This document shows positions 25,503 to 47,704 of a stretch of DNA of 64,000 nucleotides, one piece after another; position 1 is the first letter of the stretch; each line of letters starts with the position of its first letter. The notes beneath the pieces were generated by a model. That model was not told where the DNA came from and did no database searches. It saw only the letters and a list, made by a program, of their open reading frames with translations. The DNA lies in NCBI GenBank assembly GCA_965247095.1, contig OZ251997.1:2560001-2624000 (forward strand). The letters are read 5' to 3'. The DNA is from Candidatus Multivorans sp. (lineage in GTDB: Bacteria; Acidobacteriota; Thermoanaerobaculia; Multivoradales; Multivoraceae). Made by a program: the position numbers and the translations under genes.

Positions 25503-25517
25503 CTCCCTCTCCGCCAG
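25503..25517 (+). repeat. attR-like duplication of the tRNA-Ser 3' end
   Basis: CTCCCTCTCCGCCAG is identical to 20967-20981. Confidence 0.7.
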
Positions 25518-25682
25518 CCAGTAATCCGCAAGTGTGTGAAGCGTCGCGACTTGTGACGAGCTAGCTCGGTCGAATCCCTCGCTGGTTCCCACACTCTGTC
25601 TGGGAACGGGCAACGCTGGCCGGTCGGTCCCGTGTCGGGAACTTGGGATCGTTGGCAACCGTATAGAGGTCGAGAGCTGCTT

Positions 25683-26791: not shown

Positions 26792-26834
26792 GGCGGGGAT
26801 CGCGGCGCCGTATGAGTGTCGCCGCCTAGCCCGC

Positions 26835-27416
26835 CTACTCCCCCCGCTGCAGCACCGGATAGAACTGCGTGAACACATTGTCCGTCGTAGCATGCTCGGC
26901 ATGGCAGTCGTAGCACCGTTCCTTCGGGAACGCTGACGCCGACTCCCTCAACCCTCCGGACCGGTCGCGGAAGCTGAGGTAGGCCCAACCCTCCGGGTAC
27001 CGCTCGCGGTCCTTCACCGCTACTTCCATCCCGGCGAAGTCCTTCTCGAAGTACCCCGCCTGGTTGATCGACTCGCGGGAGCCGGGCCGGAACACGTCCA
27101 TGGGGAGCATGGTCTTCTCGGGGAACTCGCCGGTCTCCATGAAGTAGCGGTACGCCTGCGGCTGGATGTAGACGTTGGTGAAGGCGCCCGGACCTTCGCG
27201 CTCGCCGGCGCCCTCGTTGTAGCTCAGACCCAGCGACGCTCCGACGAACACCCAGGTGCGGTAGCCCTCCGGGCGGATCAGGTCGCCGTCCGCGGTGTAG
27301 GCCGGCTCGACCATGTCGTCGAGCGACGGCAAGGCGTCCGCCGCCGTCAACTGCACGGCCGCGGTGAGTGCGGCGATCAGCGCGATGATGGCTGTTCCGA
27401 TGATGATTTTTCGCAC
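26835..27416 (-). CDS. Cytochrome P460 family protein
   Basis: Signal peptide, LIRPEGYRTWVFVG, VAVKD, GWAYLSF, C-terminal CYDCH, VFTQFYP. Confidence 0.8.
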   Translation of the reverse strand: MRKIIIGTAIIALIAALTAAVQLTAADALPSLDDMVEPAYTADGDLIRPEGYRTWVFVGASLGLSYNEGAGEREGPGAFTNVYIQPQAYRYFMETGEFPEKTMLPMDVFRPGSRESINQAGYFEKDFAGMEVAVKDRERYPEGWAYLSFRDRSGGLRESASAFPKERCYDCHAEHATTDNVFTQFYPVLQRGE

Positions 27417-27557
27417 AGGTGAGCCTCCAGGGTTTTGGCGTGCCGGCATTCTAGACTTGGCTTCCAGATAACGAGAGGAGGCGGACGTGATCCGGAACGG
27501 AAGAAACACCGCGGCTTGCAGCTACTGCGCTCTCGCGGGCGTGCTACGCGCGCCAAT

Positions 27558-27580
27558 GGTATATTCCAACGCTGTATACC
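27558..27580. promoter_or_regulatory. Inverted-repeat operator upstream of vapBC
   Basis: GGTATA-N11-TATACC just upstream of the AGGAGG RBS of vapB. Confidence 0.5.
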
Positions 27581-27596
27581 TTCCCAGGAGGTGCGC

Positions 27597-27845
27597 ATGT
27601 CCAAGACTGCCAAGCTGTTCTGGTCCGGCCGCTCACAGGCGGTACGGCTGCCGAAGGAGTTCCGGATGGAGGGCGGCGAGGTCTTCATCCGCAAGCGCGG
27701 AACAACCGTCATCCTGGAACCCATCGCGTCGGACTGGGCGTGGCTCGACGAGATCGCGGGGAAGTTCTCGGACGACTTCTTCGCCGAAGGGAGATGCCAG
27801 CCTGAGATGCCGTCCCGGCCGGCGTTGGACGACATCTTCGACTGA
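27597..27845 (+). CDS. vapB: VapB antitoxin (AbrB/SpoVT type)
   Basis: AKLFWSGRSQAVRLPKEFR; AGGAGG RBS; TGATG coupling to vapC. Confidence 0.92.
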   Translation: MSKTAKLFWSGRSQAVRLPKEFRMEGGEVFIRKRGTTVILEPIASDWAWLDEIAGKFSDDFFAEGRCQPEMPSRPALDDIFD

Positions 27846-28252
27846 TGCGTTTCCTGCTGGACACGAACATCTGCATCGCCTTGCTCAACGGCACGTCGCC
27901 AGCGGCCCGCGAACGGCTGGGTCGCTACGGTCCTGGGGAGGTCGGTGTACCCGCGCCGGCTGTGTACGAGTTGTACTACGGGGCCTTCAAGAGTCGCCGA
28001 GCCTGGCAGAACCTGGCTTTGCTCGACAGCGCCGGCTTCGAGGTTCTGCCCTTCGATGTGGAGGATGCCCGAGTTGCAGGGAAGGTGCGAAGCGACCTGG
28101 AGGCAGGCGGGCAGACCATTGGCCCGTACGACCTGTTGATAGCGGGCCAGGCGCTGGCGCGCGGACTTGTACTCGTGACCGCAAACCGGCGCGAGTTCGA
28201 CCGTGTCGGGGGTCTGACCTGCGAGGACTGGACCAAACCCGACCAGAACTGA
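27845..28252 (+). CDS. vapC: VapC PIN-domain ribonuclease toxin
   Basis: FLLDTNICI, ELYYGA, IGPYDLLIAGQAL, LVTANRREF. Confidence 0.93.
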   Translation: MRFLLDTNICIALLNGTSPAARERLGRYGPGEVGVPAPAVYELYYGAFKSRRAWQNLALLDSAGFEVLPFDVEDARVAGKVRSDLEAGGQTIGPYDLLIAGQALARGLVLVTANRREFDRVGGLTCEDWTKPDQN

Positions 28253-28373
28253 TCGAGGAAAACCTGAAGGACAGGGCGCCCCGCCGCTGAGCTCGCGGCA
28301 CAAAGCAAAGCGCCGGCACTCCGGCGGACAATCGCGGTCGTTCGCGCTAAGCTGCCCGGCTTGCCACTTCCGC

Positions 28374-28447
28374 TGGGAGGTCGTCCAACGGTAGGACATA
28401 CGGCTCTGGACCGTAGAATCGGGGTTCGAATCCCTGCCTCCCAGCCA
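28374..28447 (+). tRNA. tRNA-Gln(CTG)
   Basis: TGGGAGG...CCTCCCA + GCCA; anticodon stem TACGG/CCGTA with loop CTCTGGA; GGTTCGAATCC T-arm. Confidence 0.95.
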
Positions 28448-35164: not shown

Positions 35165-35872
35165 CTAGGCCGGGATCAGAGCGGCGCCATCTGGCGGCGC
35201 CTCCCCGAGATTGGCAAGGACGGCGTCGATGCCTTCGCCTCTCAGGCCCTGCTTCATTCCCGAATACGCATTGGCGTCGAGTTCGGCCAACTGCGCGGCC
35301 CGCTCGAGGGCGACATCGCGCAGCTCGTCGGCCGCAGCGACCGCGTCCAGGAAACCGGCATCGCGCGCGCCCTCGGCGTCGTACATCCTTGCGGTCAGAG
35401 CGGCCCCGGTCAGGGCGCGTTTGGAGAGCCGCTCCTTGGCCAGCAACCAGGCGAACGGCGGCAGCGTTCTACCGATAGCGACCTCGTTCAGACCGAATCG
35501 GAACTCACCGTCCGCAGCCAGGCGGTGATCGCCGGTGAGCAGACAGAGCGCGCCGAGCGCGATGGCGTGTCCGCTGGCCGCGACGACCAGGGGCTGCGGC
35601 CATCCGTACAGGCGCATCATCAGACGCGCTCCGGCGAGTCCCATGGCGCGGGCCTGCGCCGCGTCTCCACCGCGAGCCACGTTGAGGTCGAACCCGCCCG
35701 AAAACAGGCCGGGCCGGCCGGTCAGTACGACGGCTCTGGCATCGTCTGCGGCACGGTCGAGCATGGCATTGACGGCAGCGATCATGGGCGGTCCGAAGAC
35801 GTTGGCCTTGCCGTCGTCCAGGGTGACCAGGGCCACGTCGCCAACCTGCTCGTAGGTGGTCGGTTCAATCAT
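35165..35872 (-). CDS. Enoyl-CoA hydratase/isomerase (crotonase) family
   Basis: DDGKAN, FSGGFDL, GHAIALG, FGLNEVAIG. Confidence 0.88.
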   Translation of the reverse strand: MIEPTTYEQVGDVALVTLDDGKANVFGPPMIAAVNAMLDRAADDARAVVLTGRPGLFSGGFDLNVARGGDAAQARAMGLAGARLMMRLYGWPQPLVVAASGHAIALGALCLLTGDHRLAADGEFRFGLNEVAIGRTLPPFAWLLAKERLSKRALTGAALTARMYDAEGARDAGFLDAVAAADELRDVALERAAQLAELDANAYSGMKQGLRGEGIDAVLANLGEAPPDGAALIPA

Positions 35873-35918
35873 GAATCAGCTCCCTTGGTGTCTGCCCCTC
35901 GGGTCAGGGGCGCTTCAT

Positions 35919-37082
35919 TCAGTTTGCCACCTTGATCTCGCGGATCTTCTTGAGCGGGACCGCGGTGATCTTCTCCGTCAGCCGGTACTCGAGGTCGCCC
36001 GGGTAGACCACCCACAGATGATCGAGACCGAGGTCCTTGCTGACCGTGTGCATCGACTTGGTCGTCCGGGGGGCATCCGCGCACTTGAACTCGAATCCCC
36101 AGCGCCTGCCGCCGCGGAGCAGCATGAGGTCCAGTTCCGCGCCCCGTTGGGTGCCCCAGAAGCATGCCTGGCGCGCACCGAACGCGATCAGGGTCTGTTC
36201 CAGGGCGAAGCCCTCCCAGCTTGGACCGTAGACGGGGTGGCGGACGAGGTCGTCCATCGATTCCAGCCCCAGCAGGTGGTGGAGAATGCCGGAATCGCGG
36301 AGGTACACCTTGGGCGCCTTGACGACGCGTTTGCCGACGTTCTCGAACCATGGTTGGAGCACCCGGATCATGAACGTCCCGGCCAGCAGGTCGCGGTAGT
36401 GGTTCACCGCGTTGACGCTGACACCCATCGAGCGGCTGAGCGCCGACGCGTTCCAGGTCTGCGAGTGGGCGTGCGCCAGCATGGTCCAGAAGCGGCCTAG
36501 CGCCTCCGGCGACACCCTCGACCCGAGTCCCGGCACATCGCGCTCCAGGAACGTGCGCGCGAACGACTCCATCCACAACATGCAGGCGGCATCCGACTCC
36601 GCCAGGTAGGCCAGTGGGAAGCCGCCGCGCATCCAGAGCCGGTCCTGGTTCTCCGCTCCCACCTCGTCGAGTGAGAAGCCGCTCACGTCGGCGAACGAGA
36701 TGCGCCCAGCCAGGGTCTCGGAAACGCCGCGGATCAGGTCCCAGGAGGCGCTGCCCAGGAGCAGGAAGACGGCTTTCCGCGCAGGGTCGTCGCAGATCGG
36801 ACGGAGAATCTCGAACAACTCGGGTACGCGCTGAACCTCGTCGATCACGATCAGCCCCTCGCCGCTTCGAAGGAGCCGCTCCGGAGTCGCGCGGAACGCC
36901 TCGCGAACCGCAGCCACCTCCAGGTCGTAGACCGTGGAGGGTCCCGTCCACGCCGCCACGATCTGTTGGGCGAGCGTCGTCTTGCCCACCTGCCGAGCCC
37001 CCAGGAGAGCGGTGACCGGTGACTGGGAGAGTCTCCAGAGTGTGGCGTCGAGCAGGCGCTGTCGGGCGGTAGATTGTCGCAT
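35919..37082 (-). CDS. AAA+ ATPase (AAA_14 + DUF4143)
   Basis: GARQVGKTT, IDEVQ, LLGSAS, ETLAGR, RGGFP, KAPKVYLRDSG, ELDL...FEFK. Confidence 0.88.
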   Translation of the reverse strand: MRQSTARQRLLDATLWRLSQSPVTALLGARQVGKTTLAQQIVAAWTGPSTVYDLEVAAVREAFRATPERLLRSGEGLIVIDEVQRVPELFEILRPICDDPARKAVFLLLGSASWDLIRGVSETLAGRISFADVSGFSLDEVGAENQDRLWMRGGFPLAYLAESDAACMLWMESFARTFLERDVPGLGSRVSPEALGRFWTMLAHAHSQTWNASALSRSMGVSVNAVNHYRDLLAGTFMIRVLQPWFENVGKRVVKAPKVYLRDSGILHHLLGLESMDDLVRHPVYGPSWEGFALEQTLIAFGARQACFWGTQRGAELDLMLLRGGRRWGFEFKCADAPRTTKSMHTVSKDLGLDHLWVVYPGDLEYRLTEKITAVPLKKIREIKVAN

Positions 37083-37188
37083 ATTCACCCTCAGAGGTGA
37101 GGTTTACGACAATAAACCGAGTTGGCGGGCTTGTCCAGCGGTGCTCAGGCGGGTGCTTCGGCCTCGTGGAACTCCTTCGCCTTGGGAC

Positions 37189-38640
37189 CTATGTGCGCTT
37201 GAGGACCTTCTCGATGATCTCTCTAGCGGCCCGGCGTGACTCGGCAGACTCCGCGATGGCTTGGAACACCTTCCGATACGTGGCAACGTCCTCGGTTCTG
37301 ACGTTCGTCAGCCGCGGGCGGCCACGCTGTGCCCGGAAGTGGGTGAGCCTGCGCTCGATGCTCTCTGCTCGGTCGAGCAAGCCCGCATCCCACCCGTCTG
37401 TTGTGCGAAGTACGTCTCGAATCCGACCTAGCCGAGTAAGGTCGTGTTCAATCAACCGGCGAGCTACTTCGGCAGTCAGGTACCCAGATCGCGCAAGCTC
37501 GTACGTCTCCTCCGAGTCCGCAATTGCCGCTGCGAACCTGCGCTCGCGCGTTCTCGTTGCTGAGGTGTTTCTGCAGCGCTCCGCCAGTCGGCGGAAGATC
37601 GCTCCCAGGTGGTTCTCCAGATTTCTCGTGTGGGGTCCGGGCTCGAAGTAGTCTCGCCGGCCGTTCGGGACGATCCTGGGGTCCAGAATGTGTATCTCCC
37701 CTACGGCCCACCTATTGAGGCGGTCCTCCTTGAACATATGGTCGAAGACGCCTTCGCCGCCGACTTGGATGTTCCCGCATCGCGCTCTGAGTCCTCTGAT
37801 ACCCGCGCTCTTGGGGATTGCTCCGAGGTAAGACGTGTGGGCAAGCCACCCCGCTGCCGCTCGCTCGCGGCTGTCGATCTTGGGCACGTCGAACACTTCG
37901 AGGGCGCTGAAGGCGTCGCTTCGGCCGGCAGAGAACTCAATGCCCTCGGCATGGGGCCTGGTAACGGCATCGTCGCCGTCGATGGAGACGTTCATCGCGT
38001 ACAGCGCATCTCCAACATACTCTTCGACCATCTCGCGGAAGGGAAAGGCGGTTGAGAGAGGCACTGGACAGACCTCCGCGACGTAGCTGTGAACCCTCTG
38101 CCGGTTCAGGACAGAGCCAGCCGCGTAGCGGGCGACGCCACGGACCTCTACTTCGAAGTACTGGTCGGGCTCTTCGTCGGCATCCAGTTGTTCCACAGTG
38201 ACGAAGTCACCTATTCGCTGTTCCGTGTCGGCTAGGTCGTGGTTCCTCAGACGGAGGGCGTCCCAAGTGACGCGGACAGGAGGCTGGTCCGCGCTGGCCC
38301 TGGTGGTGAAAGCGACTGCCTCTGCGAAAGCCAGACCAGCCAGGCGACCGATTCCGCGAAATCCCCTATTGCTGGCGGCGCGCTTGGTGCTTTGGCCGAC
38401 CGGAATCAACGAGTCGACGGCTTCCTGGAACGTCAGGCCGGGGCCGTAGTCCCGGATGCGGATCTGGGCCTGCCGAGGGTCGAGGTGAATCTCGACTCGG
38501 CCGGATCCTGGACTTCCTGTAGTCGCGTCCGCTGCGTTCTGGAGATACTCGCGGTAGAGCGTCAGCGGATCGTCGTACATCCCCGACGTGACCAGCCGAA
38601 GAAGGCTGTGGCCGAGCGCTGGTTCGTTGGAGCTGCTCAT
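37189..38640 (-). CDS. Hsp90/HtpG-like GHKL ATPase
   Basis: GMYDDPLTLYREYLQNAADA, IRDYGPG, GFRGIGRLAG; later PNGRRDYFE; GGGGAG RBS. Confidence 0.85.
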   Translation of the reverse strand: MSSSNEPALGHSLLRLVTSGMYDDPLTLYREYLQNAADATTGSPGSGRVEIHLDPRQAQIRIRDYGPGLTFQEAVDSLIPVGQSTKRAASNRGFRGIGRLAGLAFAEAVAFTTRASADQPPVRVTWDALRLRNHDLADTEQRIGDFVTVEQLDADEEPDQYFEVEVRGVARYAAGSVLNRQRVHSYVAEVCPVPLSTAFPFREMVEEYVGDALYAMNVSIDGDDAVTRPHAEGIEFSAGRSDAFSALEVFDVPKIDSRERAAAGWLAHTSYLGAIPKSAGIRGLRARCGNIQVGGEGVFDHMFKEDRLNRWAVGEIHILDPRIVPNGRRDYFEPGPHTRNLENHLGAIFRRLAERCRNTSATRTRERRFAAAIADSEETYELARSGYLTAEVARRLIEHDLTRLGRIRDVLRTTDGWDAGLLDRAESIERRLTHFRAQRGRPRLTNVRTEDVATYRKVFQAIAESAESRRAAREIIEKVLKRT

Positions 38641-38749
38641 GCTCTCCCCACTTGGAGACGGCCGTTCAGGTGATGGCTAGGCCGCCGTTGAAGGGCTAGC
38701 CGTTGTACCACAAGCAACGGGCCAGTAGCTGGCAGAGATCGCTTGGAGG

Positions 38750-40390
38750 CTAGCTCGCAGCCAGGACCTTCGTCGCCCGTGAGCGGGTGGCGGCGAGCGC
38801 CTCCTCGTGGCTGAACAGACCGGCGTCCTCCACGAACTCCTCTTCGCTGGGCATGGCCGGATCGGGATTGAGGGACGGGAACAACGGCAGTACCCGGTCC
38901 CGGACAGTCCCGGGAGCATCCTTCGTGTTGAGCGCATGGAAGCGGAGGAGCTGTCGAGTGGTGGCGTCGCGGGCTCGGTCGTTACTGGCGCGCTGACACA
39001 GGGCCCGTAGCTCGCCGTCCCCTCTAGCCTGAGCGAGGAAGGCGATGAACTCCCTTCTCTCCGACTCGGACAGTCGGGCTCGCAGCGTGTCGTACTCGTC
39101 CCGTGCTCCGGACTGCTCGTACTGCTCTCGGTGGAAGATGAGCGCGTGGGGCAACTCCAGTAGCTGCAAGAACTCCTCCTGGTCCCTTCCATAGGCGCGC
39201 TCGAAGAAGCTCGGGTTGCCGCTGACTACGCCACGGGTGGCCTGCAGCATGATCTGGAAGGACCGCAGGTAGTAGCGGTTCCAGCGCCTTCCCACGTGTG
39301 AGCGGTCCTTCAGCGTCACCGGTTGGTAGCGCATCGGGAACGACCAGATGCGAACGCCGAGCTCTTCGTTCAGGCCGATGTTCAGGCGCATCCGCTCGTA
39401 CAGGTCCTCCGGGGAGTCCATGAAGTTGTACAGCATGTAGTTCGACAGCGACGTGATGCCGTTGTCAGCCGCCATCCTCACCGCGGTGGTGTAGATCTTT
39501 CGTAGTCCGATGTGGTCGAAGGCGATCCGGAGGGGGCTGATGCAGATAGTGGCCATCTCGCGCAGGTACATTGGGGACTTGACGAGAATCCTTGCGTCCA
39601 CACCCTGGTTGAAGTCGACGCGGCGCTTCACCGGCCGCTGATCGTTCCGCCTCAGCTTGGCTCCCTGCTCGAAACCGAGGTCGCGAATCTCGGCGATGAC
39701 CTCCTTGTACCGGGCGGACGCAGTGATGTTGTTGTCCATGAGCACGAGGTCCTTCTTGGGCCCGTGTCTCGCGTCTACCCCGTTGACGAGGGCGGCGAGG
39801 GGCGGCATTTCGCGCTGCGCACCCTCAAGTTTCGGGACGCCGCAGAAGGAGCACTTCCGTATGCAGCCCCTTGAGGCATAGCCGAAGTAGGCGTCCCGCA
39901 CCGGATAGGTGTAGTCGAGCTGCTCCAGGATGGAGTAGTCCGGCACCATCTCCTCGATTGGAGGGCCGTCAAGGTCGTCCGCACCGAACTCGAAGTCCTC
40001 CGCGCGAAGCTGAAGGGCTCTTGCCGGCGGGCCGTCCAGCAGTCCCGCGATGAAGCGGACCCCCGCCCACCGTGGCTCCTTGAGGAACTCCTCGTGCATG
40101 AGCGAGGCAGCGATTCCGCCGACGAAGACCCGTTCGGGCTGGTTACCAGCCGATTGAATGGCGAAGTCGATGGTTTCGGCGGTGCGCTTCCACTCGAAGC
40201 TGAAGAGCGTCGTGACGTAGACGCGGTCCCACGGCTCCAGGAAGAGGCCCTTTTCCGACACACCTTTCGCGAGCGTCACCGCGTCGCCACGCTGCCGGTG
40301 GTAAGCCGCGATCTTCATGAGCCCGAGAGGCGGGTACTTGTTGCGGTAGCCCGGCTCCAGGAGAAGCACGCGCTTCGTCGGCTCCGTCAT
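38750..40390 (-). CDS. Radical SAM protein with a B12-binding-like N-terminal domain
   Basis: SRGCIRKCSFC (CxxxCxxC), N-terminal LLLEPGYRNKYPPLGLMKIAAYH, MDNN, VDFNQGVDAR, RIAFDH, YMLYNF. Confidence 0.85.
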   Translation of the reverse strand: MTEPTKRVLLLEPGYRNKYPPLGLMKIAAYHRQRGDAVTLAKGVSEKGLFLEPWDRVYVTTLFSFEWKRTAETIDFAIQSAGNQPERVFVGGIAASLMHEEFLKEPRWAGVRFIAGLLDGPPARALQLRAEDFEFGADDLDGPPIEEMVPDYSILEQLDYTYPVRDAYFGYASRGCIRKCSFCGVPKLEGAQREMPPLAALVNGVDARHGPKKDLVLMDNNITASARYKEVIAEIRDLGFEQGAKLRRNDQRPVKRRVDFNQGVDARILVKSPMYLREMATICISPLRIAFDHIGLRKIYTTAVRMAADNGITSLSNYMLYNFMDSPEDLYERMRLNIGLNEELGVRIWSFPMRYQPVTLKDRSHVGRRWNRYYLRSFQIMLQATRGVVSGNPSFFERAYGRDQEEFLQLLELPHALIFHREQYEQSGARDEYDTLRARLSESERREFIAFLAQARGDGELRALCQRASNDRARDATTRQLLRFHALNTKDAPGTVRDRVLPLFPSLNPDPAMPSEEEFVEDAGLFSHEEALAATRSRATKVLAAS

Positions 40391-40587
40391 TTGGCCAGCA
40401 TCCGGGTCGCGACCTTGCGACTCTTCCCGAACTCGAAGTCCACCATCTTCCTCGTTACCGGGTCATTCTGCAGTCGTCGGACAGCGTGACCCTGCTCCTG
40501 CCACGCGAGGCTGATGCCGAAACCGCTCGAGACGCGCGTTAGCATATCAATGGTGCGCCGCTGGCCTCTCTCGCTCAAGCGCGTCAT
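40387..40587 (-). CDS. Small hypothetical protein (66 aa) coupled to the radical SAM gene
   Basis: MTRLSERGQRRTIDMLTRVSSGFGISLAWQEQ...RMLAK; its TGA overlaps the radical SAM ATG (ATGA). Confidence 0.55.
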   Translation of the reverse strand: MTRLSERGQRRTIDMLTRVSSGFGISLAWQEQGHAVRRLQNDPVTRKMVDFEFGKSRKVATRMLAK

Positions 40588-40720
40588 GGGCCGGTCTGTC
40601 TCGCTCCTCGCCGCGCCAGCGAAGACCGGGCCGCGAGGCCAACTCCAAGATGGTCGAGCTTGTGAGTATTGTCGCATCCAGCTTCGACCTCTGCCTCTCG
40701 CTTGTGGGACACCAGTCCTA

Positions 40721-43051
40721 CTAAACCGCCTGAGATTCAGCGATATCTTCCGGAAAGTACTTCTCGACCTTCTCAACATACTGGTTGACGAAGGCGACCT
40801 GGTCCGGGGTCAGGACACCGCGCTCAGGGTGCGCCACGATGTTGCGAATATCGTTGAGTTTCTTGATCCATTGCGTGTTTGCCTTCATGTTGTCCCTGTT
40901 ACTCGCGTCCAGCGATATCACTTCTTTGAATAGCTGCCAATTGCGGTGACATATGTCGATATAGTTTATCAGAAAGAGTTGAGATTCTTCATTGCCCTCA
41001 CGTCGCCGCTCTTCCCACCGGGCCATGCATTGCTGGCGGATCGTGAGCGGGATTCCTTCCGTCCACCACTCTGTGCCCTGCGCGCCATAGTGTCCCTTCA
41101 ACGCCACGATGACGTAGTCAAAGAGCCTACGCTGTATCTTTCGCACCTTGGCGCTCGCTTCTTCTGTACCCGCTTCATCGCGGGAATCCAAGTACTGCTG
41201 CAGCCCTGGCGGCCTGAAGCTGGGGATCGTCTGGCCAATATGCGCCTCCAAACCGTAGGCCTGCCGCCGCACGGCTGTCAGGGAAGAGCCAATGCGCCTA
41301 AAGGACTGGATCTCTTGCGGTGATGCGTTCTTCAAGTAGCCGACCAAGACCTGAAGATACGGCCGGATTTCCCCGAAGGTCTCTTCTGCATTGAAGAGAC
41401 TGAGGTCCACGCCGTCCGTGCGACGGACATGGTCAGCAATATCTTCAATAACGTGAAACAGAGCCCGAATGCCGTTGTTGGTACACAGATATCCACCGGC
41501 TCGGTCGCCGAGCTCCCAGTGGCTCGCGAGCCCCGCCGCGAACATGTTGAGGCACTCCGAGAGCACCCATAGGGCCTTCCTGAGGTTCGCGTTGTAGTCG
41601 TCGGTTCTGGCCGTAGACAGGGGGCCCGGCACAACCGCACCTCTAGCGAAGGCTCCCAACAGCTTGGCAACTCTGAGCCCGTCCCGCACCGAAGTCTGTG
41701 TCAGGCAGCGATAGTGGCTCTTCCTCTTTCCGGTGACGACCAGGCGGTCATGGAGCGGCGAGGTGCTGTCGCGGTTGAGGCGGGAGGCGATACGCGAGAG
41801 TAGGGCCTGAAACGCTTCTTCACGGTCGGAAGAGCCCCAATGAAGGTCAGCGTAAAGCTCGACCAAGAGTCCTGTGCTCACCTTGACCTGCTTGCTGTTG
41901 ATATCGATGAAGAGGTTCATCTCCTCCTCGGAAGGTAGGTTTTCATAGGCCAGCACGGACAGGACGGTTGAATCCTTGTTGAATCCCTCTTGTGCTCGCG
42001 CATAGGCGTAGCCATAGAGCCTATGCTGGCCGTCGATGATCCAGGCCGAGGCGTAGTTCGGTGGCAGATAGAGTGTGCCCCAGGCCTCGTCACCGTAGGT
42101 CTGCTTCGCATCGAAACGCATCCGAGTTTTCTTGCGGTTCTTCAAGTTGACAACGATATTTGTCGGAAACCTGCCGCCGCCATTGATGTATTGTGCGATC
42201 TTCTTCAGCCGGCGCGGCTGGAGCATGCGCTGGTATGTTTCCAAATTGTCGATGTCCCGGCTTGCCTTGTGGCCAACATAGGCGATCTTCAAGAGCTCGC
42301 CAGGGCTGATGAGGAAAGTGTAGAACGTCTCGCCGCCCATCCTGCCGCGGGTCGCTACGACTTGTCGGACTAGGCCGGGGATCTTCTGGCCGCCGAACAT
42401 GTGCCCCAAGAACTGGTAGCGGGCCGCGCGTTTGAGGTGCTTCACGAGCTTCGCATAGTAGTCGAGTTCCCCGTCCGTGACGACCGCAATCTCCGCCTTC
42501 TCGCACTTCGCAAGGTCCGCATCGCTCCATGAGACATTTCGTGTGGCGATGATAAATCTGACTTTGAGCCCCGACTGCCGGCCGTAGGCCTTGCGGACCG
42601 ACTTGAGCAAGTTGCCCCGGATTGCCGTGATGTTCTCGATCAGCGGCGCCATGCGCTTCGTGCCCGGGGTGCCACGCTGCGTGCACTCGACGATGATGAC
42701 GGTTTCGTCGTCCTTGGCGAACACATCGATCTGACGTCCTGGCGGGCCATCTTCGACGGCGATCGTGAACTTGCGGCCTTTGTTCATTTCATCGAAGCCC
42801 ATCTGAGCTAGGATGCACCAAACTTCGTCCTCAAGCTGCTCGTCAGCAGGCTTCTCCTGGGCCATTCGCGTTGACTTGGCGTTCTTTCTGACCGTCCGCC
42901 AACCGTTAGCTGCTTCCAGCTTGACCTTTTGAGCGACAAGCTCCTTCGACGAACCCGAGACAGTCTTATAGATATCCGGCTTTTTCCGGCTCCTGAGCTC
43001 GGATGTGATCTCATCGCCGGATAAGAGGGGGTCTAGGTATTGGTCGGTCAT
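40721..43051 (-). CDS. DGQHR (DndB/ParB-like) domain protein with an N-terminal PD-(D/E)xK-like domain and a C-terminal Swt1-type HEPN domain
   Basis: RQIDVFAKDDETVIIVEC; YQRML, FPTNIVVN, WIIDGQHRLYGY, LFIDINSKQ; WWTEGIP...LNDIRNIVAHPE (RNxxxH); AGGGAG RBS. Confidence 0.85.
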   Translation of the reverse strand: MTDQYLDPLLSGDEITSELRSRKKPDIYKTVSGSSKELVAQKVKLEAANGWRTVRKNAKSTRMAQEKPADEQLEDEVWCILAQMGFDEMNKGRKFTIAVEDGPPGRQIDVFAKDDETVIIVECTQRGTPGTKRMAPLIENITAIRGNLLKSVRKAYGRQSGLKVRFIIATRNVSWSDADLAKCEKAEIAVVTDGELDYYAKLVKHLKRAARYQFLGHMFGGQKIPGLVRQVVATRGRMGGETFYTFLISPGELLKIAYVGHKASRDIDNLETYQRMLQPRRLKKIAQYINGGGRFPTNIVVNLKNRKKTRMRFDAKQTYGDEAWGTLYLPPNYASAWIIDGQHRLYGYAYARAQEGFNKDSTVLSVLAYENLPSEEEMNLFIDINSKQVKVSTGLLVELYADLHWGSSDREEAFQALLSRIASRLNRDSTSPLHDRLVVTGKRKSHYRCLTQTSVRDGLRVAKLLGAFARGAVVPGPLSTARTDDYNANLRKALWVLSECLNMFAAGLASHWELGDRAGGYLCTNNGIRALFHVIEDIADHVRRTDGVDLSLFNAEETFGEIRPYLQVLVGYLKNASPQEIQSFRRIGSSLTAVRRQAYGLEAHIGQTIPSFRPPGLQQYLDSRDEAGTEEASAKVRKIQRRLFDYVIVALKGHYGAQGTEWWTEGIPLTIRQQCMARWEERRREGNEESQLFLINYIDICHRNWQLFKEVISLDASNRDNMKANTQWIKKLNDIRNIVAHPERGVLTPDQVAFVNQYVEKVEKYFPEDIAESQAV

Positions 43052-43265
43052 GCCGCTGCTCCCTGGTGAGTCGACTATCTCGCATCATGTCGCTGGAGGC
43101 GACATTCGTGGACCTGTGCCTCAGGGTGTTCCGCGGACGCAGTACCGGAAGGCGAAGGAAGGGCGTTGAAGCTGGACGTGAGTTTCGGGAGGCTAGCACT
43201 TCGGTTGCTGGGAGTCAGATCGGCCCGGAACCTGTCAACGACATTGACACAGCGGGGTTCTGGAT

Positions 43266-44264
43266 TTACTGAGTCGTCTCTGCAGTCTCGTTGTCGGGCT
43301 TGTTGATCCAGACGGCCTGGGGCAGTGGCGTATGCATCGGTTGGCCGCCGACGAATCGTTCGGGGGAGCTTTCCCAGGCGGCGCTCAGCGTGCGTTGGCG
43401 CTGCTCGATCACGGCTTGCGCCCGGCCGTAGTGGACGGTCTCGGGGGTCAGCATGGCGATGCCGGCATGGCGGTGTTCCGTGTTGTACCAGGGGAAGAAG
43501 GACCTGCAGTAGTCGGTCGCGGCGTCCTGGTTGGGGAAGCGGCTGGGGAAGTCGGGGTGGTACTTGAGGGTCTTGAACTGTGCTTCGGAGTAGGGGTTGT
43601 CGTCGCTGACCCGCGGGCGGCCCAGGGACCGGTTCACGCCGAGGCGGGCGAGCAGTTGGGCGGTACCCTGGCTGGTCATGGGGGCGCCTCGATCGGAATG
43701 CAGGGTCAGGACATGGGGCTTGACGCCGTGCTTGAGGCAGGTCTCCTCGATGAGCCTTTGGGCGAGCGCGGAGTTCTCGCGGTCGGCGACCATCCAGCCG
43801 ACCGCGTAGCGGCTTAGGAGGTCAAGCAGGACGTAGAGGTAGTAGTAGGTCCAGGTCTGCGGTCCGAGCAGCCTGGTGATGTCCCACGACCAGACCTGGT
43901 TGGGCGCGACAGCGACCAGCTCCGGCTTGGCGTACGACGGATGGACGCGCTGGTTGCGGCGGTCCCTCACGGGGTGGTTCGCTTCGAGGATGCGGTACAT
44001 CGTGCGCTCCGAGCACAGGTAGCGGCCCTCGTCGAGCAGGGTGGCCACCACTTCTCCCGGCGAACGATCGACGAAACGCGGCGACGCAAGCGTGGCCTCG
44101 ACCCGTTTCCGCTCGATCTGGCTCAGTGCCCGGGCAGGCGTGGGGCGGGGCTGCCGTCGCCCGGGAGCGGGCCTCGCACGACGATAGAAGGTCGATCGCG
44201 ATACGCCCAGCGCCCGGCACGCCGGCGCGACGCCGACCTGCCGGGCCAGGGACCTTGCCGCCAT
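43266..44264 (-). CDS. IS3 transposase OrfB (DDE integrase core)
   Basis: PNQVWSWDIT, HSDRG, DDNPYSEAQFKTLK, WYNTEHRH. Confidence 0.92.
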   Translation of the reverse strand: MAARSLARQVGVAPACRALGVSRSTFYRRARPAPGRRQPRPTPARALSQIERKRVEATLASPRFVDRSPGEVVATLLDEGRYLCSERTMYRILEANHPVRDRRNQRVHPSYAKPELVAVAPNQVWSWDITRLLGPQTWTYYYLYVLLDLLSRYAVGWMVADRENSALAQRLIEETCLKHGVKPHVLTLHSDRGAPMTSQGTAQLLARLGVNRSLGRPRVSDDNPYSEAQFKTLKYHPDFPSRFPNQDAATDYCRSFFPWYNTEHRHAGIAMLTPETVHYGRAQAVIEQRQRTLSAAWESSPERFVGGQPMHTPLPQAVWINKPDNETAETTQ

Positions 44265-44749
44265 CAGCAGTCCTTCCCGTCTTCGAGGCTGAATCCCAGC
44301 AGCCCTGCAACTTTTCCCTGGACGTCCAGGATCGTGTGCGCGGCGGCGACTTCCCTCTCGAGACGCTTGACCTTCGCTTCCAGCCGCTTCACCTTCGGCA
44401 TCAGAGGGTTGGCCTCGTTCGGCTTGCGGCCCCGCTTCTTCGGCCTCAGACCGGAAAGCGCGCCCTCGCGCCGCGCCTTGCGCCAGTTGGCCAGATGGGA
44501 GCTGTACAGACCCTCTCGCCGCAGCAGCCGACCCACCTCGCCGCGGTGGGTGCATCGGTCCGCTTCCTCCAGAATCCGCAGCCGGTACTCCGCCGTGAAC
44601 TGCCGCCTGGTCGGTCTCGCCAGCACTTCCGGGTCGGGAACCGCCCCGGCGGGCGCCGCGCCGGCCGCGGGGGCCTCGTCGCTACGCTCCTCAACCCCCG
44701 CGGCCGGGAGCTCCGAGCCGCCGCCAAACCTCTGCTCTCGTCTTGACAT
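44264..44749 (-). CDS. IS3 transposase OrfA (HTH)
   Basis: PDPEV..RPTRRQFTAEYRLRIL, LRREGLYSSHLANWR; TGATG coupling to orfB. Confidence 0.88.
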   Translation of the reverse strand: MSRREQRFGGGSELPAAGVEERSDEAPAAGAAPAGAVPDPEVLARPTRRQFTAEYRLRILEEADRCTHRGEVGRLLRREGLYSSHLANWRKARREGALSGLRPKKRGRKPNEANPLMPKVKRLEAKVKRLEREVAAAHTILDVQGKVAGLLGFSLEDGKDC

Positions 44750-44871
44750 TGATCCTCCTTGCCAACGTGTGCCCTCCACTATTCAACGGGATGGCCGCTG
44801 TGTCACGTACGTTGGCAGAGAGGGGCCGTAGGGGCGCTGACGCGTGGTTCGGAACGTGTTGGCTTCCGCCC

Positions 44872-46068
44872 TCAGAGCATTCGCGCGGCGATCCAGGGCA
44901 GGGCGACCGCGGTGCCCAGCACGCTGCCGAGGTTGCTCAGCACGACGACCAGGAGCACGCGTGTAAGGCGGTTGGACCAGAAGCCGCGCGCGGAACTGAG
45001 GCTGTCGGCGAGGTTCTCCATGTCCGCCACCAGGGGCCGGCGGAGCAGCGCCTGGACCAGTCCCGCGACCCAGCCGGCGGCGATCAGCGGGTTCAAGCTG
45101 GTCAGGGGCGCGGCGGCGAAGGCCGAGGCGATGGTCAGCGGATGCCCCAGGGCGATCGCGGCCCCTAGGGCGGACAAGCTGCCGTTGATCAGGATCCAGA
45201 GGTAGATCGACTCGACCGACCGCTCGCGATCGCCGGTCAGGAAGCCGTAGGCCAGGAGCGCGATGATCGCGATCGGCAACGCCCACTTGACGATGCGCGG
45301 CCAGAGCGGCGGCTCGGGCAGTCGCTCGAGTTCCTCCAGATCGCAGGGCGAGCCCGCGAGGCTCGTGATGCCGGGCACGTGCCCGGCGCCGACCACGGCC
45401 ACCGTGCGCGGACCTGCCGACTGGCGCAGCTTCTCGGCCATGTACGCGTCCCGTTCGTCGATCAGGGTGCCCTTGACGCTGGGCAATGCCTCGGCGAGGG
45501 CGGACACCAGGTCGCTCAGGTTGCCGCTGTCGCGGAGCTGCTCGATGTCCTCTTCCTTCAGGTCGTCGCCGACGAAGGCGCTGCCGGCCAACTGGGTCAT
45601 CACCTTCGTCCGCTGCCAGAAGCCGAGTGAGGCCCAGGTGCGCTTCAGCGAGATCTGGATGTCGCGGTCGATCAGTTCGAGGCGTGCGCCGCGTTCCCGG
45701 GCCCGGGCGATCGCCTCTCTCATCTCGGCGCCGGGCTCGATGCCGAAGCGCTGGGCGATGCGCCGCTGGAAGGAGTGCATCAGGAACGAGCTGAGCAGCA
45801 GCGCCGCCTTGCCCTCGCGCAGGACCTGGAAGATGTCCAGCTTGCGCCACGACTCCTGGTCCTCCAGGTTGCGGTAGCGGGCCTCGCAGAGTTCGACGCA
45901 GACGGTGTCGGGCTCGAGCGCCTCGATCGCCTCCTTCGTGTCGCGCACGCTCTGCGGCGAGACGTGCGCGGTGCCGACCAGGAAGACCTCCCGCTCGTCG
46001 AGTTCGAGTCGCTGCACCGAGGCGGGCAGGTCGGGGGGCGCCGGTTGGCGCTCGGCTTCGGACATCAT
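44872..46068 (-). CDS. TraB/GumN (pheromone shutdown) family protein
   Basis: LVGTAHVS, VCVELC, PGAEM, DRDIQISLKR, LIDERDAYM, VVGAGHVPG, C-terminal TM segments. Confidence 0.88.
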   Translation of the reverse strand: MMSEAERQPAPPDLPASVQRLELDEREVFLVGTAHVSPQSVRDTKEAIEALEPDTVCVELCEARYRNLEDQESWRKLDIFQVLREGKAALLLSSFLMHSFQRRIAQRFGIEPGAEMREAIARARERGARLELIDRDIQISLKRTWASLGFWQRTKVMTQLAGSAFVGDDLKEEDIEQLRDSGNLSDLVSALAEALPSVKGTLIDERDAYMAEKLRQSAGPRTVAVVGAGHVPGITSLAGSPCDLEELERLPEPPLWPRIVKWALPIAIIALLAYGFLTGDRERSVESIYLWILINGSLSALGAAIALGHPLTIASAFAAAPLTSLNPLIAAGWVAGLVQALLRRPLVADMENLADSLSSARGFWSNRLTRVLLVVVLSNLGSVLGTAVALPWIAARML

Positions 46069-46174
46069 GGCAGCGCGGAGCGTAGCCGACGGCCGGCTGG
46101 AGGCGAAACCGCGGCGGCGTCGAGTACGATGTTGTGTTCCAGGTCGTGATGGCAGGGCTGATGGGAGGATTGGA

Positions 46175-47704
46175 ATGGAAGTGATGAGAGACCATTGCCC
46201 CGTGGCGGCACGGGCGCTGGCGATGGGCGCCCTGGTGTTCCTTGCCTGCACCGCGCCCGACGCCGATGCCCCCGTCGCGGATGCCGGCGCCGGCCCGCGG
46301 CCGAACATCGTTCTCATCCTTGCCGACGATCTCGGCTACGCCGACATCGGCATCTACGGCAGCGAGGTGATCTCGACCCCGAACATCGACGCGCTGGCCG
46401 CGAGCGGCGTTCGCTTCACGGCGGGCTACGTCAGCCATCCGGTGTGCAGTCCGTCGCGGGCCGGGCTGATGACCGGGCGCTACCAGCAGCGCCACGGCTG
46501 GGAGTTCAACCCGGCCGGCCGGGATGTCGGCGCCGGCATGAGTCTCGAGGAGACGACCCTGGCCGACCGGATGAGGGCTCTGGGGTACCGGACCGGCATG
46601 ATCGGCAAGTGGCACCTGGGCCGCCAGGCGCCCCATCATCCGGTGAGCCGCGGCTTCGACGAGTACTTCGGCGTGCTCGAAGGCGGCAGCATCTTCATCG
46701 ACTCCAGCCTGCCGGGCGTGGAGTACGGCTCGATCCGCGGCGAAGACGGGCCGACGGTCCGCCGGAACAAGGTGCTGCGGGGGTTCGAGGAAGAGAAGGT
46801 CGACCGCTACCTGACCGACGTGTTCACGGAGGAAGCGACAAGCTTCATCGAGCGCAGCGCGAGCGGTGAAGAACCCTTCTTCCTCTACCTCAGCCACACG
46901 ACGCCGCACACGCCGCTCCAGGCCACGGCCGAGTACCTGGACGGCTACCGCCACATCGAAGATCAGCGCACCCGCGTCTACGCGGCCATGGTCGCGTCGC
47001 TCGACGAGAGCGTGCGGCAGGTGGTCGAGACGCTCAAGGCACAGGGCGTGTACGAGAACACGATGATCGTCTTCGCCAGCGACAACGGCTGCGCCGGCTA
47101 CATTCACGCCGCCTGCTCGAACGCGCCGCTCTTCGGTTTCAAGCGCTACCACCACGAAGGCGGCGTGCGGATTCCCTTCATCATCAGTTGGCCGGAAGGA
47201 ATCGAGGGAGGGCGGACGTTCAATCAACCGGTGATCACCCTCGACTTCACGGCGACCTTCACGGCTGCGGCGGGCCAGGAAGCAAAGGCGGGCGACAGCG
47301 TGAACCTGCTGCCGTACATGACCGGCGAGGCGGACGGCGCGCCGCACGAGTACCTCTACTGGCGGGCCGGCGCCAGCGTCGCGATCCGCGACGCCCAGTA
47401 CAAGCTGATCAAGCTGAACCGCACCGAGTTCCGGCCCGACGATCTGCGCGGGGACGGCCGTTTGCAGCCGCCCGAAGGCGGCTGGCCCACGGATTCGCCC
47501 CACGGGCAGGCCACCCTGCTCTACGACCTGGAAGCCGACATCGGCGAGTTGAACAACCTGGCGGCGGAGCAGCCGGAGGTCGTCGCCCGTCTCGAAGCCG
47601 AGTTGGATGCGTGGCGCGCCACGTTGCTGAGCGAGCCGATCCTGCCGGGTGTGCGTTCCACGATCACCGAGATCGATGGTGAGTGGGTCCAATTGGTATT
47701 CTGA
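46175..47704 (+). CDS. Sulfatase (formylglycine-dependent, exported)
   Basis: PNIVLILADDLG, CSPSRAGLMTG, GKWHLG, SDNG, EGGVRIP. Confidence 0.92.
   Translation: MEVMRDHCPVAARALAMGALVFLACTAPDADAPVADAGAGPRPNIVLILADDLGYADIGIYGSEVISTPNIDALAASGVRFTAGYVSHPVCSPSRAGLMTGRYQQRHGWEFNPAGRDVGAGMSLEETTLADRMRALGYRTGMIGKWHLGRQAPHHPVSRGFDEYFGVLEGGSIFIDSSLPGVEYGSIRGEDGPTVRRNKVLRGFEEEKVDRYLTDVFTEEATSFIERSASGEEPFFLYLSHTTPHTPLQATAEYLDGYRHIEDQRTRVYAAMVASLDESVRQVVETLKAQGVYENTMIVFASDNGCAGYIHAACSNAPLFGFKRYHHEGGVRIPFIISWPEGIEGGRTFNQPVITLDFTATFTAAAGQEAKAGDSVNLLPYMTGEADGAPHEYLYWRAGASVAIRDAQYKLIKLNRTEFRPDDLRGDGRLQPPEGGWPTDSPHGQATLLYDLEADIGELNNLAAEQPEVVARLEAELDAWRATLLSEPILPGVRSTITEIDGEWVQLVF

Follow-up and report, generated by a model that had tools for sequence, protein, structure and literature searches.

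In the available part of PMC9646914, SspE is described as an effector in which an NTPase domain with a DGQ(Q/H)R motif recognises a mark on DNA and activates the fused nuclease; there, and in the available text of PMC13251355, mark reading raises GTP hydrolysis and turns the nuclease on. For Dnd, the available part of PMC10853773 describes no radical SAM-GHKL partner. Here, we analysed a set of genes for a radical SAM enzyme, a GHKL ATPase and a DGQHR-nuclease in a window (the whole stretch of DNA under study, 64,000 nucleotides) from Candidatus Multivorans sp., and this set has the look of a defence system not described before, one that would mark DNA and cut DNA lacking the mark. The first-pass annotation, made from the sequence alone, had not recognised the combination as a named system, and full-text literature searches found no description of the cassette. 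The features are as follows.

35919..37088: AAA_14-DUF4143 gene, a neighbour outside the system
37139..44878: inserted island (cassette and IS3), about 7.7 kb, from empty-site joints in other samples
37189..38640, minus strand: Hsp90-like GHKL ATPase gene (P0004), ORF of 483 aa
38750..40390, minus strand: radical SAM gene (P0003) with an N-terminal B12-binding-like domain, ORF of 546 aa
39842..39865, minus strand: CxxxCxxC cluster motif (C176, C180, C183) of P0003, invariant in 41 aligned members
40387..40779, minus strand: 'small protein' ORF, 130 aa, unsupported as a gene
40721..43051, minus strand: PD-(D/E)xK–DGQHR–HEPN fusion gene (P0001), ORF of 776 aa
40799..41134, minus strand: HEPN domain, P0001 residues 640-751, with R736-x4-H741 (HEPN_Swt1, PADLOC PDC-M34B)
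41438..42355, minus strand: DGQHR / ParB-N-like domain, P0001 residues 233-538 (TIGR03187, motif conservation)
42440..42847, minus strand: PD-(D/E)xK nuclease domain, P0001 residues 69-204 (fold matches, VIA-align)
43232..44818: IS3-family element at the far island end, outside the system, with 24-nt inverted repeats at 43232-43255 and 44795-44818
43266..44555: IS3-type transposase (rve 2e-20, HTH domains)

The four co-oriented ORFs reported earlier were all found on the minus strand, and their lower GC was borne out, at 0.55-0.65 over 37000-43000 against 0.66-0.73 in the flanks (500-nt windows); within the cassette, the GC of P0001 (0.55-0.60) lies below that of the radical SAM-GHKL pair (0.62-0.65). 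Both proposed flanks, an IS3 element and an AAA-DUF4143 ATPase gene, were identified from inverted repeats and domain matches. Contig depth at the IS3 element is very high in four runs, which marks it as multi-copy. The AAA-DUF4143 gene is merely adjacent and does not belong to the system: in two sister genomes it occupies the same slot alone. The claim that the window holds no dnd, dpd, ssp or methyltransferase genes was checked in part, in the genes of the island and in 16 ORFs from its flanks (21 to 58 kb), and these flanking ORFs are housekeeping genes rather than a defence island.

The cassette is accessory and mobile, with a patchy distribution: it occurs in 4 of the 27 same-genus genomes searched and in 0 of 16 genomes of other genera in the order. 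Its site is a chromosomal insertion hotspot, empty or otherwise occupied in sister genomes. Empty-site joints in other samples run from 37138 to 44879 (X10) and from 36722 to 44869 (X5, X6), and the genes flanking the island are directly adjacent in genomes G010, G023 and G017.

The assignment of P0003 as a radical SAM enzyme is well founded. C176, C180 and C183 are the only cysteines invariant in the 41 sequences of the family, and the structure model (pLDDT 88.4) is a two-domain radical SAM fold matching AprD4 (Z 17.7), MgmA (16.9), TsrM (15.3), MiaB (15.1) and OxsB (13.6), with Z of 15-18 for the best of these. Among the 41 family members, Pfam finds Radical_SAM in 35 and B12-binding in 9, and the sole match of the family profile in PDB is MgmA (E 0.034). 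A methylthiotransferase was considered for P0003 and rejected, because the auxiliary-cluster cysteines are absent from the 41-sequence alignment. The substrates of the nearest solved relatives are an aminoglycoside (AprD4), a protein (MgmA), tryptophan (TsrM) and tRNA (MiaB), and for none of them is it DNA. No PADLOC model covers P0003, as a run of that tool proposed in the first-pass annotation established.

P0004 was likewise confirmed as an Hsp90-like GHKL ATPase. Its family profile matches the HtpG N-domain (1.2e-11) over residues 11-131, the protein matches the HSP90 family NF010683 at 1.5e-11, far under the equivalog cut-off, and E31, N35, D38, D64, G66, G68 and G93-G98 are invariant in 26 sequences. 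The C-terminal 300 residues are conserved and gave no match in the searches run.

P0001 belongs to a full-length family with 2125 matches, of which the sole name is 'DGQHR domain-containing protein', and its structure model has a pLDDT of 81.3. The DGQHR domain is secure, with TIGR03187 at 3.2e-55 (187.8 bits against a cut-off of 58.85), an invariant D340-G-Q-H-R344 in the family alignment, and resemblance of residues 236-390 to CTP-bound ParB N-domains (Z 7.7, structure comparison). The nuclease, by fold, is of the PD-(D/E)xK type: in VIA-align, residues 69-204 resemble AF1548 (Z 11.8, rmsd 2.4 over 119 residues), the nuclease domains of Can2/Card1/Cdn1 (Z about 10) and the FokI cleavage domain (Z 9.5). 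D109, D114, E116 and E122 are conserved in 23 sequences, and the canonical Lys position is Thr (T124) in 21 of the 23, with Lys and Ala in one each; since P0001 and most of its clade have Thr instead of this Lys, it is uncertain whether the nuclease cuts DNA. The HEPN domain was recovered weakly, since HEPN_Swt1 (1.3e-4) falls under the Pfam cut-off; 18 of 23 family members match it, at best with 1.9e-6, PADLOC PDC-M34B matches at 3.9e-5, and R736-x4-H741 is nearly invariant. The catalytic motifs named beforehand, CxxxCxxC, GHKL E/N, DGQHR and Rx4H, are thus all present and conserved in the family alignments.

The 130-aa 'small protein', proposed as a fourth component, has no support as a gene and is not counted as a component. 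Profile searches including Pfam and PADLOC gave no family match, tblastn found no relatives in 80, 10 or 4 related loci, and in a search of 5.8 billion proteins seven candidates were scored and none passed. Moreover, the DNA between genes at this ORF is not conserved among the closest relatives, and the region has no Rfam match.

Gene linkage was surveyed in the best-scoring 80 of at least 537 radical SAM-related loci, which span at least 12 higher taxa. As these lean to MAGs, with record titles including sponge-associated lineages, these counts do not represent a random draw of loci, and the module tally rests on ORF calls and clusters from a simple in-house procedure. Of these best 80 of at least 537, 79 have a GHKL gene on the downstream side of the radical SAM gene. 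In addition, the two proteins co-diverge, their pairwise identities being correlated with a Spearman coefficient of 0.77 that none of 2000 Mantel permutations reaches; together they form an invariant, co-inherited core. The partner modules of this core are interchangeable and all DNA-directed. Among the same best 80 of at least 537 loci, a module of two ParB-like proteins, a small protein and an SNF2 helicase occurs in 53, a NurA/HerA-like set with a second GHKL in 10, and the DGQHR-HEPN fusion in nine (as the sole partner module in seven, together with the ParB/SNF2 module in two). What is conserved is therefore the pair and not the four-gene unit, since the DGQHR-HEPN fusion is swappable (9 of the best 80 of at least 537) and no relative of the small protein was found.

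The linkage of P0001 to the pair is strong when viewed from P0001. Its relatives adjoin the pair in 7/7 metagenome loci with enough flank and in 5/5 plasmid records, down to 42% identity, so that all 12 informative cases, including very different genomes and plasmids, lie within 2 kb; a more distant relative (L014, 30% identity) is likewise adjacent. Across locus surveys, metagenomes and plasmids, and across many bacterial phyla, the three genes (DGQHR-nuclease-HEPN, radical SAM and GHKL ATPase) thus recur as a linked set, as had been suspected. The position of P0001 varies among loci, being upstream, downstream or convergent, and its divergence does not co-vary with that of the pair (Spearman -0.08). 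In the closest sister genomes, the radical SAM protein is 94-95% identical and P0001 just 65-67%, and in other samples a pair with about 94% DNA identity occurs in the absence of this P0001 gene. Because P0001 lacks co-divergence with the pair and the pair is found without it, the pattern fits modules that communicate via a shared product and not via co-adapted protein contacts.

We give an even chance to a three-gene mobile defence cassette of modification-restriction type, working in the manner of Ssp or Dpd but with radical SAM chemistry. The radical SAM enzyme, with its single [4Fe-4S]/SAM site and B12-binding-like domain, would put a covalent mark on the DNA of its own cell, and the always-adjacent GHKL ATPase may work with it in marking as an ATP-driven clamp or loader. 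P0001 would recognise this mark with its DGQHR domain, a nucleotide switch of ParB/DndB type, much as SspE recognises phosphorothioate, which provides a precedent; it would aim its PD-(D/E)xK DNase at incoming DNA without the mark, with the HEPN RNase as a putative second effector. This reading is based on two-way gene linkage, co-inheritance of the pair, intact motifs, domain folds, and mobility and patchiness; we infer DNA as the substrate, the formation and identity of the mark, its sensing by the DGQHR domain, and its presumed role, be it protecting DNA or activating the nuclease. Further support comes from the DNA-directed nature of all partner modules and from the matches of flanking proteins to known defence models (19 of 120 sampled, a raw count). 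Weighing against it are the non-DNA substrates of the nearest solved relatives of P0003, the Thr at the canonical Lys position of the P0001 nuclease, the HEPN match of P0001 below the Pfam cut-off, the low share of loci with this partner, and the housekeeping genes around the island. The earlier suggestion that the GHKL ATPase matures or restrains the complex is likewise a conjecture. Of the nucleotide, base and peptide marks proposed earlier, the peptide is the least likely because every partner module is DNA-directed.

A small-molecule route, close to the earlier 'modified nucleotide' option, is a less probable account that we hold only tentatively. The pair would make a modified free nucleotide, either an antiviral chain terminator like those of viperins and OxsB or a signal, and its binding in the DGQHR/ParB pocket would switch on the P0001 nucleases. 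ParB-type domains bind NTPs, and residues 236-390 of P0001 resemble CTP-bound ParB; OxsB, a B12-type radical SAM enzyme among the fold matches of P0003, acts on deoxyadenosine phosphates; the N-terminal nuclease is most like those of ligand-activated Can2/Card1/Cdn1; and the missing co-divergence suits a diffusible product equally well. However, the Can2/Card1 similarity covers the nuclease domains and not the CARF sensor, viperins superpose on P0003 in the radical SAM core only (Z about 9) and PADLOC pVip models do not match it, the SNF2, ParB and NurA/HerA partners suggest action on DNA polymers, and the signal maker would be constitutively co-transcribed without an obvious infection sensor.

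It is rather improbable that the cassette serves conflict among mobile elements, marking or protecting the DNA of its carrier plasmid or island or attacking rival plasmids, like the ParB/Srx-family plasmid 'sexual conflict' enzymes. Full-length radical SAM relatives occur in 12 plasmid records, 7 of 19 matching plasmid records type as conjugative, pNL1 and pR132505 being examples of the plasmids, the cassette of this window occupies a site of frequent insertion beside an IS element, and ParB-superfamily roles in plasmid conflict are cited in the available part of PMC10853773. Against this, most of the best 80 of at least 537 loci lie on multi-megabase chromosomal contigs, and 19 of 120 sampled flanking proteins, a raw count without baseline, match known defence models at E<=1e-10, among them GajB, AbiE, SoFic, DruE, TmtA and a CBASS effector, so that classical anti-phage systems are represented; the account also departs from the mark-and-cut cassette mainly by target, not mechanism. 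Two independent clustered units, P0001 as a stand-alone GmrSD/BrxU-like type IV restriction enzyme and the pair as a system of its own or as partners in metabolism or maturation, would suit the rarity, lower GC, variable position and independent divergence of P0001, but are very unlikely because mere island clustering would not produce its 12/12 adjacency; the distant relative L014 is adjacent too.

Among described systems, Ssp is alike in placing a modification module beside one large effector, and both SspE and P0001 fuse a ParB-superfamily DGQ(Q/H)R domain, N-terminal in SspE, to a nuclease (available part of PMC9646914). The cassette differs in having no SspA-D, cysteine desulfurase or PP-loop enzyme, the proposed modifier being the radical SAM enzyme with the GHKL ATPase. 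The domain order differs as well, with the nuclease N-terminal in P0001, and its nucleases are PD-(D/E)xK and HEPN, with no DUF262 match in Pfam, whereas that of SspE is HNH-type. P0001 shares a DndB-like DGQHR domain with Dnd (Pfam DndB 1.3e-12), but scores 86.5 bits against a cut-off of 450 in the Dnd-associated DGQHR model, and the island lacks DndA, C, D and E.

P0003 shares a two-domain fold (Z 13.6-17.7 over 324-385 residues) and a single CxxxCxxC site with AprD4, MgmA, TsrM, OxsB and MiaB/RimO, from which it differs in sequence (11-16% identity) and in its unrelated genomic context. Prokaryotic viperins are likewise radical SAM enzymes serving immunity, but their domain architecture and partners are unlike those of P0003. 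P0004 resembles the defence GHKL/GHL ATPases (Tiamat TmtA, MORC-like, MzaB) in Bergerat fold, intact motifs and conflict-system context, whereas its ATP-binding domain is closest to Hsp90/HtpG and its PADLOC match to TmtA is marginal (E about 0.008). The best PADLOC match of P0001 is the DGQHR protein DpdB of Dpd (6e-18), at 61.7 bits against an equivalog cut-off of 300; the island has no DpdA transglycosylase or DpdC, and the radical SAM-GHKL core has no counterpart in Dpd. Nevertheless, relatives with fuller cassettes carry SNF2-type helicases that match DpdE models, and a modification core with helicase and nuclease partners follows the same logic in both.

The cassette, which consists of the genes for a fusion protein of nuclease, DGQHR and putative HEPN domains (P0001), a radical SAM enzyme (P0003) and an Hsp90-like GHKL ATPase (P0004), the latter two referred to below as the pair, lies with an IS3 element in a slot between two chromosomal genes. 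ORF calling places all four of the co-oriented ORFs reported by the first-pass annotation on the minus strand, and the flanks that it described, an IS3-type transposase and an AAA_14-DUF4143 gene, are borne out as well.

Features of the island and its surroundings
35165-35872: enoyl-CoA hydratase gene, one border of the insertion slot
35873-44871: insertion slot, between the enoyl-CoA hydratase and TraB-like genes
35919-37088: AAA_14-DUF4143 gene (domain match), downstream of the operon
37189-38640, minus strand: P0004, 483-aa GHKL ATPase
38750-40390, minus strand: P0003, 546-aa radical SAM enzyme
40387-40779, minus strand: 130-aa ORF
40721-43051, minus strand: P0001, 776-aa fusion protein
43232-43255 and 44795-44818: 24-nt inverted repeats bounding the IS3 element
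43266-44555: IS3-type transposase (rve, 2e-20), upstream of the operon
44872-46317: TraB-like gene, other border of the insertion slot

The island is indeed less GC-rich than its surroundings, with a GC content in 500-nt windows of 0.55-0.65 over 37-43 kb and of 0.66-0.73 in both flanks, and the lowest values within it fall in the P0001 gene. As 16 further ORFs at 21-58 kb are housekeeping-like, including genes for a PQQ dehydrogenase, an HtrA-type protease, an enoyl-CoA hydratase, sulfatases and a PBP, the window is, as far as these ORFs show, not a defence island. Nothing in Rfam matches 35-45 kb. The promoter and terminator scan performed no better than chance. Elsewhere in the window, at 25395-28399, there are three successive minus-strand ORFs (294, 224 and 340 aa) without a Pfam match at E<=1e-4.

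The cassette is single-copy in the host genome, and the radical SAM gene is present in 4 of the 27 same-genus genomes searched and, among genomes from the order's other genera, in none of 16. The slot is found empty in three genomes, where the hydratase and TraB-like genes lie 12-28 bp apart (G010 and G023) or abut (G017), and it is a hotspot for insertions within the genus, with gaps of 1.6-14.7 kb between these genes in other genomes. Radical SAM systems occupy this same slot in G000, G042, G043, G008 and G021, and the partner modules differ among the last four, on the assumption that the loci L001-L004 represent these genomes. Empty sites are also seen in other samples, joined from 37138 to 44879 or from 36722 to 44869, and the extent of the island is therefore estimated to be approximately 37139-44878. 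In samples X5 and X6, positions 40515-43223 are without cover, a gap that was weighed only jointly with the genome comparisons.

Neither neighbour of the operon belongs to the system. The AAA_14-DUF4143 gene is rejected as a component, being found alone in the slot, without the cassette, in G016 (94% identity) and G004 (91%); its product matches the PADLOC candidate family PDC-S01 (5.9e-80), and several paralogs with 28-50% identity are present per genome in sister genomes. That IS3 truncated a larger operon is likewise rejected, since the same three-gene layout without ParB/SNF2 genes occurs in five other loci (L001, L002, L039, L062 and L067). The IS3 element itself (43232-44818) exceeds its neighbours in contig depth 10- to 100-fold in four of four runs, and is thus a high-copy IS in these communities; its transposase is a single 429-aa frame with both HTH and rve domains. 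The small protein that had been proposed as a fourth component has to be dropped, as its 130-aa ORF lacks support as a gene: no family model matches it, and no relative occurs in 94 related loci or in a collection of 5.8 billion proteins. In the two closest relatives, the intergenic DNA at this position shows no conservation, and in further loci the DGQHR-HEPN gene reaches almost to the radical SAM gene.

Relatives of the radical SAM enzyme are widespread. When one genome per species is scanned, at least 537 stretches encode one, and 1838 representative clusters score E<=0.001 for the family. Among the best 80 of these at least 537 loci, which are 64-95% identical, the record names span at least 12 higher taxa, several naming sponge-associated lineages: Acidobacteriota, Gemmatimonadota, Gamma- and Alphaproteobacteria, Poribacteria, Latescibacterota, Thermodesulfobacteriota, Binatia, Nitrospirales, Chloroflexota, Acidimicrobiia and Spirochaetia. 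In 79 of these best 80 loci the radical SAM gene is followed by a GHKL homolog, and what stands beside the pair varies, according to a tally based on purpose-made ORF calls and clustering.

Partner modules beside the pair in the best 80 of at least 537 loci
ParB-like protein, ~150-aa protein, SNF2 helicase, ParB-like protein: 53 of 80
ParB-like/SNF2 module together with a P0001 relative: 2 of 80
P0001 relative only (the type in the window): 7 of 80
NurA/HerA-like pair with a second GHKL: 10 of 80
ParB-like only: 2 of 80
None of the listed modules: 6 of 80, four of them with a larger GHKL and a 340-aa protein

The ParB-like partners were not recovered as DGQHR homologs by profile-profile comparison (E 0.2-0.4), though their (E/D)GN(S/T)R aligns onto DGQHR. 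A larger MutL/BbrUII-like GHKL of ~580-630 aa recurs together with a 340-aa protein that matches the PP_RS20740 family weakly; the two often adjoin the cassette (L042, L050, L058, L065, L070 and others) and are a possible additional partner module. In L007 (4185-7583, 1.8e-184) and L063 (11453-14866, 1.2e-91), a full-length Tiamat-like TmtA GHKL protein is encoded directly beside the pair. From the 202 flanking genes whose products reach 150 aa, 120 proteins were drawn at random; as a raw count, 19 of them match known defence models at E<=1e-10.

The linkage also shows when the search starts from P0001. Its reverse scan in metagenomes yields 10 loci, and the pair adjoins the P0001 relative in all seven with enough flank, of which three seem to be the same organism repeated. 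The contigs of the remaining three break off too soon, one of them with ParB-SNF2-ParB upstream. In PLSDB, P0001 relatives at 42-62% identity occur in five records, and all five have a radical SAM gene within about 2 kb, so that the neighbourhood check upholds a recurrent linkage of the three genes. On plasmid pNL1 of Novosphingobium aromaticivorans, the order is PIN-like, GHKL2, short DGQHR, radical SAM and GHKL, with a convergent P0001 homolog, while pR132505 of Rhizobium leguminosarum WSM1325 carries two hypothetical proteins, a helicase, ParB, DGQHR, radical SAM and GHKL.

In 15 loci with all three genes, pairwise identities of the radical SAM and GHKL proteins are correlated (Spearman 0.77, reached by 0 of 2000 Mantel permutations), whereas those of the radical SAM protein and P0001 are not (Spearman -0.08, 1276 of 2000). 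In the closest relatives, the radical SAM protein is 94-95% and the GHKL protein 90-91% identical, and P0001 just 65-67%. Moreover, other samples contain contigs that match 37189-40375 at about 94% identity and leave the P0001 gene uncovered. Judged by these correlations, the identities in sister loci, the cover and the GC content, the radical SAM and GHKL genes are inherited together as a unit; the DGQHR-HEPN gene is exchanged independently of them and yet stays adjacent.

Within the pair, the radical SAM family is the more strongly constrained, with 64-72% identity across phyla compared with 40-52% for GHKL. The assignment of P0003 is substantiated by both the CxxxCxxC motif and a partial TIM-barrel core; C176-x3-C180-x2-C183 is invariant across 41 family members, and there are no other invariant cysteines. 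The Pfam Radical_SAM score of P0003 falls below the cut-off (19.3 vs 29.5 bits), and 35 of 41 relatives match the model. A search of the PDB by sequence alone gives E 0.7 at best, and the structural model (pLDDT 88.4) fits an architecture of an N-terminal B12-binding-like domain followed by the radical SAM core. Its fold matches AprD4 (Z 17.7), MgmA (16.9), TsrM (15.3), MiaB (15.1), and also CysS, TokK and OxsB (13.6), and the two-domain arrangement is that of the class B enzymes TsrM, MgmA, OxsB, TokK and CysS. In addition, residues 5-135 resemble the B12-binding domain of AerR (Z 8.9), and PF02310, the B12-binding family, is matched by 9 of 41 relatives. P0003 is thus predicted from its model to carry an N-terminal B12-binding-type Rossmann domain, as in class B radical SAM enzymes. 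The top match, AprD4, carries a B12 domain and is not known to use cobalamin, so that fold alone makes cobalamin use by P0003 no more than possible. A methylthiotransferase of the MiaB/RimO type is rejected, because P0003 is without the auxiliary-cluster cysteines and scores 15-17 bits against TIGR00089 and TIGR01125, whose cut-offs are 251-357.

P0004 retains all three Bergerat-fold motifs (ExxxNxxD, DxGxG and the G-rich box) in 26 aligned relatives, with E31, N35, D38, D64, G66, G68, G93, G96 and G98 invariant, as expected from the GHKL assignment. Its description as Hsp90-like also stands, the closest profile being the HtpG/Hsp90 N-domain (1.2e-11), and the resemblance is confined to this N-terminal ATP-binding domain. 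A true Hsp90/HtpG chaperone is rejected, with 43.5 bits against a cut-off of 455 for NF010683 and 14.5 against 371 for NF003555. The long, conserved C-terminal half has no match in anything searched.

The third protein, P0001, is a DGQHR protein as annotated: TIGR03187 matches residues 233-538 at 3.2e-55 (187.8 bits, cut-off 58.85), and the motif D340-R344 is invariant in 23 aligned sequences. The PD-(D/E)xK claim holds for the core fold and not for the complete D...(D/E)xK motif. In the AlphaFold model (pLDDT 81.3), residues 69-204 match AF1548 (Z 11.8, rmsd 2.4 over 119 residues), the nuclease domains of Can2, Card1 and Cdn1 (Z about 10) and the cleavage domain of FokI (Z 9.5), the range for Can2, Cdn1 and FokI being 9.5-10.6. 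Two acidic residues, D109 and E122, are conserved, and DNase activity is plausible; it is not assured, because the canonical lysine position is Thr124 and is lysine in only 1 of 23 relatives. The HEPN domain, at the C-terminus, is a tentative call: the HEPN_Swt1 match is weak in P0001 (1.3e-4, 22.6 bits vs a cut-off of 27.5), and 18 of 23 relatives match the model at E<=0.01, with R736-x4-H741 nearly invariant. Nothing useful for P0001 was found in the PDB by sequence alone.

All partner modules act on nucleic acid, mostly DNA. A modification-restriction-like system, in which the pair would write a DNA mark and P0001 would read it, is favoured because the modules are DNA-directed, the pair is invariant, the modules swap without co-adaptation and the logic is SspE-like; we hold the odds to be about even. 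More tentatively, the pair might install a chemically new DNA mark, such as a methyl group on carbon or another adduct of carbon-centred-radical chemistry, on base, sugar or backbone. Interchangeable ParB-superfamily nuclease/helicase modules would read it, and gene transfer would have carried it over at least 12 higher taxa of bacteria and to conjugative plasmids. As a caveat to a DNA mark, the structural neighbours of P0003 act on small molecules, proteins or tRNA. Residues 236-390 of P0001 match CTP-bound ParB N-domains (Z 7.7); a small-molecule product of the pair, sensed by a ParB-type pocket, is unlikely. The family resides on plasmids as well as in the genomic slot, and a role in plasmid or mobile-element conflict is less probable still. 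That the units are independent and merely co-located, as the uncorrelated identities of P0001 might suggest, is very improbable given the neighbourhoods in which P0001 keeps beside the pair.

A phage origin is weakly supported and rejected, since none of 12 matching phage records covers 80% of the protein and the best match is an unverified 8.9-kb contig; the taxa hints in the ESM Atlas are leads only. Two records are worth describing. The temperate Marinitoga camini virus 1 (L095, KP836355.1) encodes, within 6998-10824, a truncated 360-aa radical SAM relative (31% identity), convergent with genes annotated as HerA and NurA that match the NurA/HerA-like module of the 10 bacterial loci. The unverified phage contig L096 (MT836743.1, 520-6724) has the order NurA-like, HerA-like, GHKL and radical SAM, its radical SAM match being in three pieces, which frameshifts or insertions could explain.

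If the DNA-mark reading is true, this would be the first case in prokaryotic immunity of an epigenetic self-mark written by a radical SAM enzyme, bringing a new enzymology (radical SAM plus Hsp90-like ATPase) beside methylation, phosphorothioation and 7-deazaguanine marking, and a modular design in which one conserved 'writer' pair serves several swappable 'reader/cutter' modules. A new mark would also bear on the reading of long-read modification signals and on tool development. The hypothesis is directly testable because the family is carried by cultured, tractable, non-pathogenic hosts, for instance the pNL1- and pR132505-bearing strains.

The cassette matches none of the known systems with which it was compared. 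In PADLOC v2, no model, pVip included, matches P0003 at E<=0.01, and P0004 gives only a marginal match to TmtA (E about 0.008); P0001 matches PADLOC-DB v2.0.0 at the domain level only (DpdB, PDC-M34B). Viperins, from which P0003 also differs in lacking a pVip match, resemble only its radical SAM core (Z about 9). A search of open full text found no description of the cassette. The reported lack of dnd, dpd and ssp genes holds for the modification genes of all three systems in the island. In the case of Dnd, P0001 scores below the Dnd-associated DGQHR model TIGR04172 (86.5 bits vs a cut-off of 450), and DndC, DndD and DndE are missing among the island genes (three genes and the IS) in PADLOC and NCBIfam. 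For Dpd, it scores below the DpdB equivalog NF041060 (61.7 bits vs 300), and the island has no DpdA-like transglycosylase gene. As for Ssp, the DGQQR NTPase domain of SspE reads phosphorothioate and switches on a fused nuclease (PMC9646914). P0001 differs in having DGQHR instead of DGQQR and no DUF262 N-domain (none at E<=0.01), and sspABCD is missing from the island; its architecture is analogous only, and its likeness to SspE is one of logic.
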